This document shows, in pieces, positions 6,269 through 32,781 of a stretch of 32,781 nt of DNA (positions within the stretch are counted from its first letter, which is position 1; each line of letters begins with the position of its first letter). This stretch comes from an uncultured Spirochaetaceae bacterium (GTDB lineage Bacteria; Spirochaetota; Spirochaetia; Sphaerochaetales; Sphaerochaetaceae): NCBI GenBank assembly GCA_946629155.1, contig CAMOXM010000003.1:1-32781 (forward strand), written 5' to 3'. The position numbers and the translations under genes are program-made. The notes under the pieces were generated by a model, which was not told the origin of the DNA, ran no database searches, and saw only the letters and a list, made by a program, of their open reading frames with translations.

Positions 6269-6285
6269 ATTGGAGGTTTTCCTGA

Positions 6286-6383
6286 AGGGCGCTTCTAAAA
6301 ATCCCAGAGTCCAAACCTGCCAGATGTCCTTCCGACTGAAAAGCCACAAGCATCTTCGAACAGCAGGTTTTTAGAAGTGCCCT
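6286..6383. repeat. MITE-like element, short copy A (~98 bp) with terminal inverted repeats AGGGCGCTTCTAAAAA / TTTTTAGAAGTGCCCT
   Basis: The terminal inverted repeats were read directly. It belongs to the same family as the copies at 26641-26802 and 31415-31579. Confidence 0.7.
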
Positions 6384-6537
6384 GAAATTTTTTTCTTCAT
6401 GATGCTCGCCCTTCCGTCGCATAGCATCCGTTTCGAAAAAAATTCCAGGGCAACCTCCTGATTGCAACTTTTACGGAAAAAGATATAATAGGAATAATAA
6501 TATATTGTTCGTCTATTATAATAGAGGAGAATGAGAG

Positions 6538-8010: not shown

Positions 8011-8070
8011 AAAGACCTAATTAGAGATGATTGCCTTGAGATAAATTTTGGGACAATCTCCCTCGTTCGG

Positions 8071-8101
8071 ATTTCTAGAAGCATTTGGGTTTTTAGAAGC
8101 G
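8071..8101. repeat. solo MITE terminal-repeat-like fragment (ATTTCTAGAAGCA...GTTTTTAGAAGCG)
   Basis: It matches the GTTTTTAGAAG terminal-repeat core of the MITE family; no second end is nearby. Confidence 0.35.
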
Positions 8102-8161
8102 TTCCGGATATGCTGGTTATCGGCTGGCTGATTCCGGAAGCGGTTTATTAGGAGAAGATAA

Positions 8162-9064
8162 ATGTTTGCGAGAAAGATGGCGGCATTGATGCTGCTGATG
8201 GTTTTGACTTGTTTTTCATGCGCCAAGAACGCTGAAGGCGCAAAGGGTTCGGCTGATGTCGAGGCGACAGGTTCCGAGAGTTCCGAATCCGGTTCCAGAC
8301 CAACCGATTATGTTCAAATAAACGACAATGCCTTGAAGGTTAAGAGAGCGAACGGCGAGACGGTTGAGATCGCGCCTTGCGCCCCGTCGAACACCTGCGA
8401 TGATGTCGCCTATGCCCTTGCGATGCAGATTATCGGCAATATCAAGGGCATCTATTCCGAGGTCTATGGCAGGGAGCAGAAAGCGAACCTTTCCGATTCC
8501 GAAATCGGTTCTTTCCTTCAGGGCTTGCTTGATGCGGAAAACGGCAGGGAGTTGGATTACGGATTCATGATGGATATTGGGAATCGTCTTCAGGCCGATG
8601 CGGATGCGAAAAGGGCCAAGAGCCGCGAAGCAGCCGAGAACTATTTCAAATCGTTGGAGGCTCGCGAAGACATAATCAAAACTGATTCGGGTCTTATGTA
8701 TGAGGTGATTGCCGAAGGCGACGGCAATGGCGGAATCGATAGCGAATCGAAAGTGAATGTAGATTATGTCATGTCGGTCTATCAGGAAGGCGCGCCTGAT
8801 AACAAAGTCGAGGCGGATAGCAATCAGGATATTGATTTCATCGTTTCCAATCTGATTCCCGGAGCTATCGAGGGTTTGAAGCTTATGAGGGAAGGCTCTG
8901 AGTATGTGTTCTATATAAATCCCGAACTCGGATACGGACCTGTTGCGGTAAGCCCCGTAATCGGACCGGATTCGTATCTCATATTCAAAGTGAAGGTCAA
9001 CAAGATACATCCGGACGAAACGCCTGAAGATAGTGAAGCGCCTTCTTCCGAACGGACTGAATAG
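8162..9064 (+). CDS. FKBP-type peptidyl-prolyl cis-trans isomerase lipoprotein (FkpA/Mip-like)
   Basis: Signal peptide with a lipobox-like LTCFSC; C-terminal FKBP domain (VNVDYVMSVYQEG...YVFYINPELGYGP). Confidence 0.75.
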   Translation: MFARKMAALMLLMVLTCFSCAKNAEGAKGSADVEATGSESSESGSRPTDYVQINDNALKVKRANGETVEIAPCAPSNTCDDVAYALAMQIIGNIKGIYSEVYGREQKANLSDSEIGSFLQGLLDAENGRELDYGFMMDIGNRLQADADAKRAKSREAAENYFKSLEAREDIIKTDSGLMYEVIAEGDGNGGIDSESKVNVDYVMSVYQEGAPDNKVEADSNQDIDFIVSNLIPGAIEGLKLMREGSEYVFYINPELGYGPVAVSPVIGPDSYLIFKVKVNKIHPDETPEDSEAPSSERTE

Positions 9065-9093
9065 GCGGCTGACAAGCGCTTTGCAAGGAGGAC

Positions 9094-9724: not shown

Positions 9725-10240
9725 ATGAGCGCCGTTTTCTTTTTCATGTGGCGGAATACCGTCCGCAAGTATTCGCTTCGGGAAACCGAAAAGCTTATCC
9801 GGAAATATCGGGACGAGTTCAATGGCATCGTAAGCGAAAAGCTGGAAATAACTCAGGAAAAGGCTATTGAAATCACAGACAGGTTCAATTCCGTAGAAGG
9901 CGAGATCGAATATTTCAACCAAAGGATGCGTGAAGCGAAAGCGCTCCTCATGAAGCTCGACAATACTAACGAACTGATACAGAATACCGTCGAGAAGAAT
10001 CTGAGCCGCGATGAAGCGCTTATCACGATGAATAAGGAACTCGAGGACCTGAAGAGGAAGATAAGCAGTTCGGATGGAGGACTAAGCGGCGCTATGGCTG
10101 AAATGGTGAACGGCATGGAAGAGGCGTTGAAGAGGATAAAGGCTGTCGAGACGAGCAATGCTAAGCTAAGAAAGGATTTTGACGATTTCGAGCATATCAT
10201 TGTCAGCATAGTGGAACGGCTTAAGGTTTTGGAGAAGTAG
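9725..10240 (+). CDS. coiled-coil protein with N-terminal hydrophobic segment; the start may lie upstream on a non-ATG codon
   Basis: Heptad-rich sequence. The in-frame upstream residues LDIVLICATALCIG continue the hydrophobic helix back to nt 9677. Its stop abuts the asnS ATG. Confidence 0.5.
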   Translation: MSAVFFFMWRNTVRKYSLRETEKLIRKYRDEFNGIVSEKLEITQEKAIEITDRFNSVEGEIEYFNQRMREAKALLMKLDNTNELIQNTVEKNLSRDEALITMNKELEDLKRKISSSDGGLSGAMAEMVNGMEEALKRIKAVETSNAKLRKDFDDFEHIIVSIVERLKVLEK

Positions 10241-26640: not shown

Positions 26641-26802
26641 AGGGCGCTTCTAAAAACCTGCTGTCTAGAGAGCGCCTGTGGATTTCGGAATCGGAAAAGC
26701 GTCCGGAAATCGCATGATACTGTCGTATTTTGCTATTTTCGGGCGATTTTCAGAGCCGAAAGGTATAGGCGAAATCGGACTCTGAGGGTTTTAGAAGTGC
26801 CT
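26641..26802 (-). repeat. MITE-like element copy B (162 bp), inverted relative to copy C
   Basis: Terminal repeats AGGGCGCTTCTAAAAAC ... GTTTTAGAAGTGCCT. The interior is ~85% identical to the reverse complement of 31415-31579. Confidence 0.75.
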
Positions 26803-28978: not shown

Positions 28979-30295
28979 ATGTTTAGAAGAAAAATAGAAG
29001 AAAGGCTGTATGAGTATTATAAGAACCCGGATGATAGGGTTCTCATTGTGGAAGGCGCAAGGCAGGTCGGCAAGAGCTTTATAATCCGTCACACGGCAAA
29101 GAACAGCTTTGAGAATTTCATAGAAATAGATTTGAAGGCGGATCTCGAAGGCGACAGGCTTTTTGCAAATGCCAAAAGCACGCGCGACTTCTATTTGGCA
29201 TTGAGCTCGAAATATGGGCAGAGCCTTGGAGATTTTCAGAACACGATTGTTTTTTTGGATGAGATTCAGTTTTATCCGCATCTGATGACATTGCTCAAGG
29301 AGTTGAAGAAGGAGGATAGGTTTCGATACATAGCAAGCGGGTCTCTGTTGGGGGTGACGTTGAGACAGATTTTCATACCGATGGGCTCAATAGAGGAAGT
29401 CAGGATGTTTCCGCTTGATTTCGAGGAATTCCTTTGGGCTAACGGAGTAGGCGTTGACGTGGTTTCGTATTTGAGGAGATGTTTTGACGATGTTGCCGAA
29501 GTCGGCGAAGACATTCACTCTAGAATTCTGAGATTGTTCAAGGATTATCTCATATCGGGCGGGTTTCCGGATGCGGTGAAGGAATATGTGATAAACCAGA
29601 ATGTGCAACGGATGCGAAAGGTTCACGATGAAATATTTGCATACTATAGCGCGGATTGCTCTCAATACGACAATGAACACAGGCTGAAAATCATGCGAAT
29701 CTACGGCTCTCTGATCTCTAATATGCAAAACAAAGTGAAAAGGGTGCAGTTCAAGAAAATCGAGGGACTCGCAAATGCCAATGCCGAGAAATATGTCGAT
29801 GAATTCGATTATTTGGCATATTCGGGCGTCGCTTTGTTCACGCGCGCTGTCAGCAACCCCGTTTTTCCGCTTTCTGAAACTAGCAGTAAGAACCTGTTGA
29901 AATTGTATTACAACGATGTCGGGATTCTCACGAACCTTTTGTTTAAGAATAACATCAATGCAATCCTTGCCAATGACAAGGGCATAAACTTAGGTTGCGT
30001 CTATGAGACCGCCTGCGCATGCGAGCTCGCAAGCCATGGACACGAGCTTTTTTATTTCGACAGCAAAAAGACAGGCGAAGTCGATTTTCTGATAAATGAC
30101 TACGACAAGCTGTCCGCAGTTCCAATAGAGATAAAATCGGGCAATGATCAGAACAACTTCCGCGCCATACCTAAGCTGGTCGACAGAAACGGCAACTACA
30201 AGCTGTCCTGCGGTTATGTCTTCGGAAACAAGAATGTAGCTGTGAGGCAAAACGACCTTATCATCATGCCGGTTTACATGATTATGTTTGCGTAG
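28979..30295 (+). CDS. AAA+ ATPase with C-terminal DUF4143-like domain (COG1373-type)
   Basis: N-terminal Walker A EGARQVGKSF and Walker B-like IVFLDEIQ; a C-terminal restriction-endonuclease-like module, typical of this abundant family. Confidence 0.8.
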   Translation: MFRRKIEERLYEYYKNPDDRVLIVEGARQVGKSFIIRHTAKNSFENFIEIDLKADLEGDRLFANAKSTRDFYLALSSKYGQSLGDFQNTIVFLDEIQFYPHLMTLLKELKKEDRFRYIASGSLLGVTLRQIFIPMGSIEEVRMFPLDFEEFLWANGVGVDVVSYLRRCFDDVAEVGEDIHSRILRLFKDYLISGGFPDAVKEYVINQNVQRMRKVHDEIFAYYSADCSQYDNEHRLKIMRIYGSLISNMQNKVKRVQFKKIEGLANANAEKYVDEFDYLAYSGVALFTRAVSNPVFPLSETSSKNLLKLYYNDVGILTNLLFKNNINAILANDKGINLGCVYETACACELASHGHELFYFDSKKTGEVDFLINDYDKLSAVPIEIKSGNDQNNFRAIPKLVDRNGNYKLSCGYVFGNKNVAVRQNDLIIMPVYMIMFA

Positions 30296-30409: not shown

Positions 30410-31379
30410 ATGGAAATATCACTGCCTGAATTCATTGATAACATGCACAAGACGCTTAGTCAAAGCATCAAGGAGGAAATTAAGCCGGGAAGCAGGATTT
30501 CCGTGGCTGTGGCTTGTTTTTCGATTTATGCATATCGGGAATTGAAGAATGAACTAAAGGATATTGATGAATTGAGGTTTGTGTTCACTTCTCCGACCTT
30601 TATCGCGGATCGGATTAAGAAAGAAAAGCGCGAGTTCTATATTCCGCGTCTTAATCGCGAAAGAAGTCTTTACGGCACCGAGTTCGAAGTGAGATTGCGG
30701 AACGAGCTCAAGGCAATCGCAAAAGAATGTGCGGGATGGATTAGGAGAAAAGCTCGTTTCAAATCAAATTCAACTCAGCAGAACATGCCGTGCTTTATGA
30801 ATGTCGATGAAGAAACGGGAAGCAGCGGATTCTCGCATGGTCGATTTGTCGGAATTGTCTATGGATGATGATTATGATTTAGACGATCAGAACGCAAGCG
30901 ATATGTTTGAAATCGGAAAGAAGGTCAGAATCGATTTGAACGATATGGACTATGTCACATGGCTTGCGGATTTGAAACTCGATGCTGCAGTTCTCGATGG
31001 ACTTGAGGTTCTGACTTCTGAAATCACTCCGGAAAAAGATTCGAAGCTTCAAAAGCTGATTGGGATAATCAGGGGTAAAATAGAAAATCCAATCAACGAG
31101 GGCAATAGGAAGGTGATTATATTTTCCGCATTCGCCGATACTGTGGAGTATCTTTATGGGAATCTGAGTGGGTTCTTAAAGGAAAAGTACGGATTGAATA
31201 CCGCAATGGTCAGCGGCACTACGGAGGGGCGAAGCACTCTTGAAAAGTTCAGTTGCGACTTGAATGCCGTGCTTACTTATTTCTCGCCTCTTTCAAAGGA
31301 TAAGGATGTGATCTATCCAGGTGACACGAGGAGCATAGACATTCTTATTGCAACGGATTGCGAATGTGCAACAGGTTAA
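30410..31379 (+). pseudogene. remnant of a PLD-like nuclease + SNF2/ResIII-type helicase gene (N-terminal PLD piece and C-terminal helicase piece only; core ATPase domain missing)
   Basis: 30410-30868 encodes ...ISVAVACFSIYAYRELKNEL...LRFVFTSP...FSHGRFVGIVYG and then a stop. A different frame, 30801-31379, encodes the helicase C-domain (KVIIFSAFADTVEYLYGNL...YFSPLSKDKD...IDILIATDC) and stops just before MITE copy C. Confidence 0.55.
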
Positions 31380-31414
31380 ATTTGATGCGGACATAGGCCG
31401 TATCGACATAGTGA

Positions 31415-31579
31415 AGGGCGCTTCTAAAAACCTCAGAGCCCGATTTCACCTGATGCCTTTCGGGTCTGAAAATCGCCGGAAACCAGCAAAATATGACAGT
31501 ATTCCGCTGGTTTACGGCGATTTTCCGCCTCTGAAATCCGCAGGCGCTCTCTGGGCAGCAGGTTTTTAGAAGTGCCCTG
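31415..31579 (+). repeat. MITE-like element copy C (165 bp) with terminal repeats AGGGCGCTTCTAAAAAC / GTTTTTAGAAGTGCCCT and a long internal hairpin
   Basis: The terminal repeats are reverse complements with one mismatch. The internal repeat is GAAAATCGCCGGAAACCAGC / GCTGGTTTACGGCGATTTTC. Confidence 0.8.
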
Positions 31580-31591
31580 AATGAAATAAGC

Positions 31592-31951
31592 GTGAGAACG
31601 ATTCCTGCGATTCAGACGGGTGATAAGGTTCAAAGCATTTACGTTTTAGACGTGGCTATGAAAACGAAGAAATACGAGCCGAAAAATATAGAGCGAATCG
31701 CAAGGCTGATTCCACAAAATCTTGTTTTTGTTCTGCATTTTGAGGGAGAAATACAGCTTGCTGTCTTTTGCGAAAAGCTTTTTGCAACCGACTGGCTTTC
31801 TGAAAGCAGGGCAGTTATTCCGCTTGCGGGGTTGAATTTTGATGAGGTTTGGGAAAATATAATAAAAAGAACCGGCGGCGGAGAGTGGAATGGCTCTCTG
31901 ATCTTAAGCTTAGGTATCAGACCGCTCAGATTAAGGTTTCTGTTAGCGTAA
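31592..31951 (+). CDS. hypothetical ORF (119 aa, GTG start), probably a truncated gene fragment
   Basis: It starts immediately at the MITE boundary and has no start context. Confidence 0.3.
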   Translation: MRTIPAIQTGDKVQSIYVLDVAMKTKKYEPKNIERIARLIPQNLVFVLHFEGEIQLAVFCEKLFATDWLSESRAVIPLAGLNFDEVWENIIKRTGGGEWNGSLILSLGIRPLRLRFLLA

Positions 31952-31956
31952 ATTCC

Positions 31957-32225
31957 GAATTGATTAAGTTTTATTGGTCTCTTGGTGAAGATATTTTCTC
32001 CATGAAAAAAGAGAGCAAATGGGGGTGATGGATATTTTGAAAAAATAAGTAAGGATTTAAAAACGATACTCCCAAATACTAAAGGATTTTCACCTTCAAA
32101 CCTTAGGTATATAATGCGGTTTTACGAATTTTTCCTAATTTTTCCACAAGTTGTGGAAGAATTTGAAGGAAGCGGTCATTCGCATATTTCATTAATTCCT
32201 TGGGGTCATAAAAGGCAGGCGATTC
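31957..32225 (+). pseudogene. N-terminal fragment of a YhcG/DUF1016-like PD-(D/E)XK nuclease, frameshifted
   Basis: The N-terminal signature of that family is read across one frameshift near 32030: ELIKFYWSLGEDI...KWG / ISKDLKTILPNTKGFSPSNLRYIMRFYEFF...ISLIPWGH. The nuclease domain is absent. Confidence 0.5.
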
Positions 32226-32386
32226 TCACCGCAAATGCGCCCATAAGCAAGACATTGCGTCCTTGCAGGGAGGAGAGCGTTGATTTCGACAATACAGAGA
32301 ACCTCTACACAGAGGGCGACAACCTCGAAGTCTTGAAGCTTTTGCAGGAAACCTACCTCGGCAAAGTTAAGATGATTTATATAGAT
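32226..32386 (+). pseudogene. N-terminal fragment of a beta-class (Mod/N4-N6 type) DNA methyltransferase, truncated just before the DPPY motif
   Basis: ...ENLYTEGDNLEVLKLLQETYLGKVKMIYID follows in the same ORF as the YhcG fragment. AT-rich unrelated sequence comes next instead of DPPYN. Confidence 0.5.
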
Positions 32387-32597
32387 ATTAAGACCACGCA
32401 TATTGATACGGTTTTATGCCGAAATATAGCCTAAATTAGGCAAAAATAGGGTATTTATTGTAGTTTTTATAAATTTTTGGATTATTGTGTTTAGACTGGA
32501 TGATTAACTGATTATAACCTGAACACCCTTGATTTTAAATCGTTCGTTTGCAGACATAAAATTTACATTAAATGTAAAAAATGCTATCATTATAAAT

Positions 32598-32781
32598 ATG
32601 AATTTACATAAAAATATACCCAACGAATCTTATCACTTGAACATAGATGAAAGGGTAAATTTAGGTAGCTTTTATACGCCGCTAAAATATGTTGGTATTG
32701 CAGGTGCTTGGTTGAAGGAATATGGTGTAACTGATGACTATATTATATTTGATCCAAGTTGCGGATATGGTTCGTTTTTTA
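32598..32781 (+). CDS. gamma-class N6-adenine DNA methyltransferase (Eco57I/TaqI/HsdM-like), 3' end beyond window
   Basis: Motif X GSFYTP followed by motif I FDPSCGYGSFF. It is embedded in ~30% GC DNA, and the open frame runs to the window edge. Confidence 0.5.
   Translation, partial: MNLHKNIPNESYHLNIDERVNLGSFYTPLKYVGIAGAWLKEYGVTDDYIIFDPSCGYGSFF

Follow-up and report, generated by a model that had tools for sequence, protein, structure and literature searches.

The DNA between positions 30410 and 32386 of a 32,781-nucleotide stretch from an uncultured Spirochaetaceae bacterium (assembly GCA_946629155.1, contig CAMOXM010000003.1; the whole stretch is called the window below) is very probably a dead copy of a single defence operon that was eroded in place by internal deletions. 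Intact members of this operon family encode, in order, an SNF2 helicase of approximately 1085 amino acids with a PLD-fold N-domain, a DUF4391 protein of approximately 200 amino acids, variable cargo, a Type III Mod, more cargo, and a Type III Res. We searched the window with operon proteins from intact Blautia and Treponema loci (tblastn/blastx), using the intact Treponema loci L006 and L007 as reference copies for the blastx mapping, and checked it further by three-frame translation and hidden Markov model (HMM) scans against Pfam, PADLOC, and NCBIfam. The results showed that the segment is collinear with the conserved operon. The remnants lie on one strand in the order and orientation of the operon genes, and all matches to operon proteins within the window were confined to this segment. 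On comparison with the loci L004, L006, and L053, the order helicase, DUF4391, cargo, and Mod was found in the window, with Res missing. The Blautia Res query gave no match in the whole window, and no further helicase, Mod, or Res pieces were found elsewhere in it (tblastn). The shared order and orientation, together with an intact adjacency of the cargo nuclease YhcG and Mod in L006, indicate that the pieces are one operon eroded internally.

All of the catalytic modules have gone from the remnants, namely the SNF2 N-lobe and motif VI, the YhcG_C nuclease, the Mod PPY motif and target-recognition domain, and Res. With no catalytic domain left, the relic is incapable of methylation and of restriction. 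The locus can be annotated as non-functional, its 'hypothetical proteins' being accidental open reading frames (ORFs) and pseudogene fragments. Apart from a frameshift in a run of G residues, the remnants contain no internal stops, which suggests that the decay is recent. A sequence-only reading of the same DNA had described four separate pieces of defence-type genes, none of them intact. The homology to the intact operon genes bore out both the defence type and the broken state. Nearly all of the described features are present at the given positions, with scores well beyond chance expectation, but most of them belong to one operon, in which DUF4391 is a fifth gene remnant.

The same reading had attributed these pieces to serial replacement of cargo at a hotspot, in which four independent defence or restriction genes would have arrived one after another at an integration site, each truncating its predecessor. 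For the first 2 kb this was not supported, as the pieces are collinear with one conserved operon, and we consider serial arrival unlikely. The surroundings do resemble a defence island, and the stretch upstream contains a DEAD/ResIII helicase, a DprA-like gene, a large ATPase, and DUF3990/HTH pairs, with an intact AAA_14/DUF4143 ATPase (28979-30295; PADLOC PDC-S01, expectation value (E) 2e-148) directly upstream of the dead operon. The operon family also swaps its cargo (75 sequence clusters among 124 slot ORFs, see below), and the AT-rich methyltransferase segment at the end of the window looks later-arrived. However, the helicase, DUF4391, YhcG, and Mod pieces stand exactly in the order and orientation of one operon, YhcG and Mod are intact neighbours in L006, and the junctions are simple deletions between neighbouring genes, with no foreign DNA or element ends except for one miniature inverted-repeat transposable element (MITE). 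No tRNA that could have served as an integration site was found in the window. A separate unit is seen only in the AT-rich segment at the end, where replacement or insertion is plausible. We regard the locus as an ordinary pseudogenised restriction operon in a defence island. The AAA_14/DUF4143 family of the upstream ATPase was also seen as slot cargo inside the operon in two other loci (L033 and L012).

Table 1. Features at the right end of the window (positions of the window; aa, amino acids of the intact homologue).
Feature	Position	Strand	Description
Helicase remnant 1	30410..30811	+	N-terminal PLD-fold domain, aa 1-136 of ~1086; about two thirds of the domain; 82-83% identity
Deletion junction 1	30812..30839	+	~478 codons gone (aa 137 to ~614, SNF2 motifs I-III); frame changes
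Helicase remnant 2	30840..31361	+	Start of RecA2 lobe, aa ~622-795 (~615 if counted from 30819); 75-76% identity to L006 and L007, E ~1e-75
DUF4391 remnant, part 1	31362..31414	+	aa ~25-44, fused to the helicase stump (deletion junction 2)
MITE-like element	31415..31578	.	164 bp, inside DUF4391; terminal inverted repeats AGGGCGCTTCTAAAAACC / GGTTTTTAGAAGTGCCCT; flanked by GA (or TGA) direct repeat
DUF4391 remnant, part 2	31579..31891	+	aa ~45-147 of ~202; 68% identity to L006 DUF4391, E 2e-51
YhcG/DUF1016 cargo remnant	31892..32203	+	N-domain only; junction 3 at ~31891, junction 4 at ~32201-32203
Type III Mod remnant (beta-class N6_N4 methyltransferase)	32201..32386	+	aa 66-127 of ~639; first 65 aa missing
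Unrelated AT-rich non-coding DNA	32387..32597	.	GC 0.28-0.31
Start of gamma-class N6-adenine methyltransferase	32598..32781	+	First 61 codons; FYTP (motif X) ... FDPSCGYGSFF (motif I); runs off the contig end

The two helicase pieces (Table 1) matched intact helicases of 1086-1096 amino acids by blastx (E 1e-66 to 1e-75). The homology blocks stopped at 30811 and restarted at 30819 or 30840, corresponding to reference residues 615 and 622, and the second piece was cut after ILIATDC, with motif VI and the C-terminal region of approximately 290 amino acids gone. In place of an intact helicase of approximately 1080 amino acids with SNF2 motifs I-VI, the window holds residues 1-136 and ~615-795 in two frames. 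These alignments agree with the earlier description of an N-terminal piece and a C-domain piece in different frames with the ATPase core deleted. The HMM scans of the product of 30801-31379 gave partial matches to Helicase_C, DrmD, and HmaA. The AlphaFold model of the 134-amino-acid N-terminal piece of the window had a predicted local distance difference test score (pLDDT) of 43 and a longer homologue was used instead; the N-domain profile had no match among PDB sequences.

A search for homologues of the helicase pieces returned only proteins of 540 amino acids or fewer, many with internal deletions of their own. A naturally split or systematically deleted helicase family was considered and was ruled out by the approximately 55 intact genes of ~1085 amino acids in the genome scan described below. 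That the hits were short is due to the fragmentary nature of the metagenome contigs and to how candidates were selected. Five helicase-family proteins (P0002, P0003, P0006, P0007, and P0049) had their own internal deletions with differing junctions, and in P0049 the helicase N-domain was joined to a DUF4391-like tail. Independent erosion of the helicase-DUF4391-Mod-Res operon appears to be common in metagenomes.

Contrary to the sequence-only reading, the helicase remnant stops short of the MITE. It joins DUF4391 codon ~25 at 31361/31362, and the MITE lies within DUF4391. The sequence IANVQQVKFDADIGRIDIV of the window, compared with LTNAQQTKFDADISRIDIV of the reference, aligned with residues 25-47 of the L006 DUF4391 protein at 65% identity. 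The 'small ORF at 31592' of the sequence-only reading is the second part of this gene, DUF4391 (PF14335). As found, the second part matched PF14335 with E 8e-9 (36.2 bits against a gathering cutoff of 29.9), and after removal of the MITE the match rose to E 7e-11 (42.9 bits), covering profile positions 31-165 of 232, which marks it as a fragment.

Three copies of the MITE family were found in the window (6283-6386, 26641-26801, and 31415-31578). The copy at 26641-26801 is inverted and 84% identical, and that at 6283-6386 is internally shortened to approximately 104 bp. The terminal inverted repeats of 16-18 nt are conserved (family repeats AGGGCGCTTCTAAAAA), and the GA/TGA flanking repeat was present at two copies. 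The family is thus short, non-coding, and multicopy, with terminal repeats and a target duplication, as is characteristic of MITEs. No copies outside the window were found in the related loci that were fetched. When the 164-bp element and one GA were excised in silico, the resulting sequence RIDIVNEISVRTIPAIQ matched the reference RIDIVNEVSGRTIPAIQ and the reading frame was restored. The 166 inserted bases explain why the two parts of DUF4391 differ in frame by one base. As its removal restores the reference sequence, the MITE at 31415-31578 is a clean insertion into DUF4391 and not the end of the helicase remnant.

The cargo remnant that follows is the N-domain of a YhcG/DUF1016 gene with a +1 frameshift at a run of five G residues (32021-32025). 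The match to DUF1016_N had E 4e-7 as found and E 3e-21 after one G was removed (positions 2-96 of 137), in line with the earlier assignment of a frameshifted YhcG/DUF1016 N-fragment, and the piece at 31849-32028 matched PADLOC PDC-S02 (E 7e-16). Intact homologues have both DUF1016_N and YhcG_C; in the window the N-domain is partial and no YhcG_C/PD-(D/E)XK domain was found.

The Mod remnant is 87% identical to the Mod proteins of L006 and L053 (blastx, E 3e-29), and within the ORF at 32114-32434 it matched PADLOC MTase_III PDLC03634 with E 3e-31 over profile positions 61-123 of 621. It ends with MIYID at 32386, where the references read KMIYIDPPYNT. The methyltransferase is cut at its DPPY motif, close to where the sequence-only reading had placed the cut, with PPYNT next in the references, and a Type III Mod with catalytic DPPY and target-recognition domain is not present. 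The YhcG piece is in frame with the Mod piece, as also described earlier, and a W at 32201-32203 is common to the YhcG 'IPWGH' and the Mod 'WPDK'; the piece entered is Mod residues 66-127 and not the true N-terminus of the methyltransferase. In L006 an intact YhcG gene (8019-9077) ends one base before the Mod start. Because of this abutting arrangement, the 'YhcG/Mod chimera' is best explained by a deletion that joined two neighbouring genes of the operon. Mod residues 66-127 were 86-90% identical in protein and up to 84% identical in DNA between Treponema and Clostridia (L006, L016, L017, L040, L074, and others), compared with ~45-60% for the whole Mod. This segment could serve as an interaction surface, or as an anchor for recombination beside the cargo slot.

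The breakpoints, the collinearity, and the MITE insertion are shown by the alignments; that the events took place in the order given here, and after selection on the operon had been lost, we infer. The ancestral locus would have carried an SNF2 helicase with an N-terminal PLD-fold domain (probably catalytically inactive), DUF4391, a YhcG-type PD-(D/E)XK nuclease as cargo, a Type III Mod, and a Type III Res. A deletion of ~1.4 kb removed the helicase ATPase N-lobe, and one of ~0.9 kb fused helicase codon 795 to DUF4391 codon ~25. The 164-bp MITE entered DUF4391, another deletion took away the sequence between DUF4391 codon ~147 and a point within the cargo gene, and the G run of the cargo gene acquired a one-base frameshift. 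A further deletion joined the N-domain of the cargo gene to Mod codon 66, and everything beyond Mod codon 127 was lost, with it the catalytic PPY, the target-recognition domain, and Res.

Several points weigh against a single eroded operon as described here. No closely related strain with an intact locus was found, and the ancestral state is drawn from homologues that are 65-87% identical in protein. The YhcG remnant is 39-46% identical to the YhcG of L006, and cargo at the YhcG position was seen in the operon family, not in the lineage of the window. The G-run frameshift could be a sequencing error, and the assemblies that contain the locus may share the same reads, which makes an artefact at individual junctions possible. 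The assignment of the terminal methyltransferase comes from 61 residues, with an N6_Mtase match of E 0.019 (14.7 bits against a gathering cutoff of 20.4).

An assembly artefact affecting the whole region, with a contig end that is chimeric between strains or species and deletions and an AT-rich tail that are not contiguous in any genome, was judged very improbable. In its favour, the window is a complete metagenome contig, and a sharp change in guanine-plus-cytosine content (GC) at 32387 coincides with the break in homology. Identical sequence was found on contigs of NCBI, ENA, and Logan assemblies (including GCA_003454065.1 and ENA ERZ28612947), which counts against an artefact; all of these contigs end at the base corresponding to 32781, and this common stop in three assembly records suggests a branch in the assembly graph, a point for the artefact. 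The protein of 28979-30295 was likewise identical in GCA_003454065.1 and ERZ28612947. Against an artefact, the deletion junctions are free of repeats of the kind that commonly leads to mis-joins, the MITE is bordered by a proper duplication and its removal restores the frame, and similar independent truncations and fusions occur in isolates, for example a truncated copy of the operon in Treponema zioleckii kT3 and a broken helicase in Blautia stercoris.

To define the intact parent family, a genome scan was run with a profile of the N-terminal domain on one genome per species; at least 561 stretches matched and 80 loci were returned, mostly from Clostridia and Treponema of the gut and rumen. 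With the Blautia proteins as tblastn queries, the same gene order was found in most of the loci that extend far enough. The helicase was intact in approximately 55 of the 80 loci (1076-1220 amino acids), broken by stops or deletions in 10, and part of an aberrant fusion in 2, and it ran off the contig in the remaining 13. In loci with sufficient downstream sequence, DUF4391, Mod, and Res came after the intact helicase. Roughly one copy in six was visibly inactivated. The sequence-only reading had likened the locus to a three-gene arrangement of helicase, small protein, and methylase in other genomes. Such a trio exists, in most of the 80 loci with enough sequence, but its methylase is a Type III Mod followed by Res and not the Eco57I-like gene at the end of the window.

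The compact form was seen in L053 (10010-18868), with four abutting genes for helicase, DUF4391, Mod, and Res only. Its helicase has SNF2-rel_dom, ResIII, and Helicase_C domains and was matched from end to end by PADLOC C3a139 'HKD+Snf2' (E 7e-124), a cluster that takes its name from a survey of the surroundings of type III CRISPR loci (PMC6546367). The other three genes matched DUF4391 (E 5.5e-36), MTase_III (Mod, E 1e-232), and REase_III (Res, E 3e-289). NCBIfam PRK15483 'type III restriction-modification system endonuclease' was a further match for Res with E 4.5e-113, at 379 bits short of the 564-bit cutoff. DUF4391 matched no PADLOC or NCBIfam model. There is almost no literature on DUF4391; it occurred in two papers of the library searched, and by title and abstract neither deals with a helicase-DUF4391-Mod-Res system.

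In the isolate Blautia stercoris (L004), a helicase, DUF4391, a 605-amino-acid protein, an N6_N4 methyltransferase, and a ResIII/RE_endonuc protein follow one another in order. The helicase of this copy is split into two annotated proteins of 521 and 534 amino acids by an in-frame TAG (9850-10060, JAXJHC010000019.1) where the homologues have a Glu codon; the gene is a nonsense pseudogene unless the TAG reflects a sequencing error. In an uncultured Treponema (L008, 9989-15169, CAKUZR010000003.1) a 1726-amino-acid ORF carries the helicase (to residue ~990) in frame with Mod (from residue ~75), with DUF4391 deleted. In L083 the N-terminal half of the helicase runs into unrelated sequence in an ORF of 1812 amino acids.

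In 42 of 47 loci DUF4391 and Mod were separated by 500 bp or more, and the largest gap was 5.9 kb. Gaps were also found between helicase and DUF4391 and between Mod and Res, giving three slots, in which the 124 plus-strand ORFs form the 75 clusters mentioned above. The co-oriented, defence-type cargo includes YhcG, AAA_14/DUF4143, GmrSD, TIR-domain, and AbiEi/AbiEii proteins, an AAA_15/21 ATPase with a TOPRIM protein, 23S_rRNA_IVP, and an SF1 helicase. Intact YhcG cargo was present in L006, where it abuts Mod, and in L015, and the YhcG piece of the window is not foreign to the operon family. Other examples of the operon are L006 (2260-12604) and L012 (8085-18489). We tentatively suggest that the parent could be an uncharacterised composite defence system, with a Type III Mod/Res, an SNF2 helicase with an inactive PLD-fold, DUF4391, and three hypervariable co-oriented cargo slots, in which strongly conserved core segments, such as Mod residues 66-127 with their 86-90% identity across phyla, may anchor cargo recombination. 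If this is true, the window is a decayed witness of such a system and not a random graveyard of defence genes. The locus itself matters little; the intact parent operon and its cargo slots are of more interest, and the family is a reasonable target for defence-system experiments and for the study of cargo swapping inside restriction-modification operons.

Among known systems, the family is similar to Type III restriction-modification of the EcoP15I type, as Mod and Res of the intact relatives and the Mod piece of the window match the same PADLOC models. The family differs in adding an upstream SNF2 helicase with a PLD-fold, DUF4391, and variable cargo, and the copy in the window in having no PPY, target-recognition domain, or Res. 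In comparison with PLD-nuclease and helicase proteins (SauUSI, C3a139, DISARM DrmD, and HmaA), the catalytic His of the HKD motif is not conserved in the operon family (consensus xFKSN). Matches of the intact family to DrmD and HmaA were partial and far below the NCBIfam cutoffs (144.9 against 610 bits), and the partners DrmA, DrmB, and DrmC were not found. DISARM, Hma, and the BREX-related systems defined around DUF499 (PMC12839542) were each considered as the parent and ruled out, as their partner genes are lacking in L053 and the scores fall below cutoff. Defence genes nested co-oriented in restriction-modification operons have been described for PrrC in the Type IC EcoprrI locus and for BrxU in a BREX island (PMC12707154). 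The same co-oriented placement of unrelated cargo between core genes is seen here, whereas the scaffold is Type III with a helicase and DUF4391 and has three slots.

Beyond 32386 the GC fell from ~0.43-0.46 to the level given in Table 1. Positions 32562-32578 form a perfect palindrome of 17 bp, TTTACATTAAATGTAAA, which shares sequence with a promoter-like site (-35 at 32562, -10 ending at 32590), and the gamma-class methyltransferase starts shortly downstream, so that the low-GC DNA, palindrome, and methyltransferase start reported earlier were all recovered. The palindrome may be an operator for autoregulation or for a controller protein. Its half-site AATTTACAT occurs again at 32601-32609, just inside the methyltransferase gene. 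The AT-rich DNA at 32387-32597 had no DNA relative in the fetched loci or in phage records.

The start of the methyltransferase matched PADLOC MTase_II (E 4e-6). A homologue search with its 61 residues returned no candidate and phage records gave no DNA or protein match, whereas tblastn against plasmids found 43% identity to Campylobacter proteins annotated 'Eco57I restriction-modification methylase domain', and in C. coli p19565112 the relative is followed by an 'R.Pab1 family restriction endonuclease'. Scans of viral and metagenome sequences gave 73 relatives of up to 63% identity. Nearly all of those examined (27 of 28) are NPPY methyltransferases, mostly complete with 353-434 amino acids, and the other is a truncated ORF of 131 amino acids. 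Identity to NPPY methyltransferases of 355-435 amino acids was 55-63% over 49-53 residues, and many of the relatives were lower in GC than their surroundings. At 8 of 19 relative loci a gene of ~255 amino acids overlaps the methyltransferase stop and belongs to the R.PabI family; the three that were scanned matched PF09522 RE_R_Pab1 with E 6e-34 to 8e-52. R.PabI enzymes are restriction DNA glycosylases specific for GTAC; their restriction-modification units are mobile and, in bacteria, have M in front of R (PMC4615327).

The terminal gene of the window is probably M.PabI-like, to judge from its relatives. These are small NPPY gamma-class methyltransferases, often with an overlapping R.PabI-family gene downstream (M upstream of R, as in bacterial PabI systems); in contrast, the window gene consists of 61 residues at 43-63% identity over ~50 amino acids, NPPY and any partner lie beyond the contig end, and some relatives are orphans on phage-like contigs. 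Most likely, the tail marks the border of a Type II restriction-modification cassette, or belongs to an orphan methyltransferase, that was acquired horizontally and either took the place of the distal operon or inserted into it. This last step we infer, because the contig ends there, and no continuation past 32781 was recovered from the three assembly records or from the metagenome and viral scans, which gave relatives of at most 63% identity.

Insertion of the AT-rich segment into Mod, with the rest of Mod and Res beyond the element and off the contig, is less likely than not to be the form that this step took. In its favour, mobile insertions of PabI-family units, in which M precedes R in bacteria, have been documented (PMC4615327), and the homology to Mod stops abruptly at 32386. 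On the other hand, no downstream Mod or Res sequence was found elsewhere in the window, and the operon would be dead regardless, owing to the upstream deletions. The closest relatives of the terminal gene, with 63% identity over 49 residues, were found at 5980-7104 of L085 (IMGVR_UViG_3300031994_000033) and 7980-9104 of L086 (Ga0247608_10000150), and both are orphan NPPY methyltransferases of 374 amino acids beside tail-fibre-like genes on phage-like contigs of ~131-135 kb.

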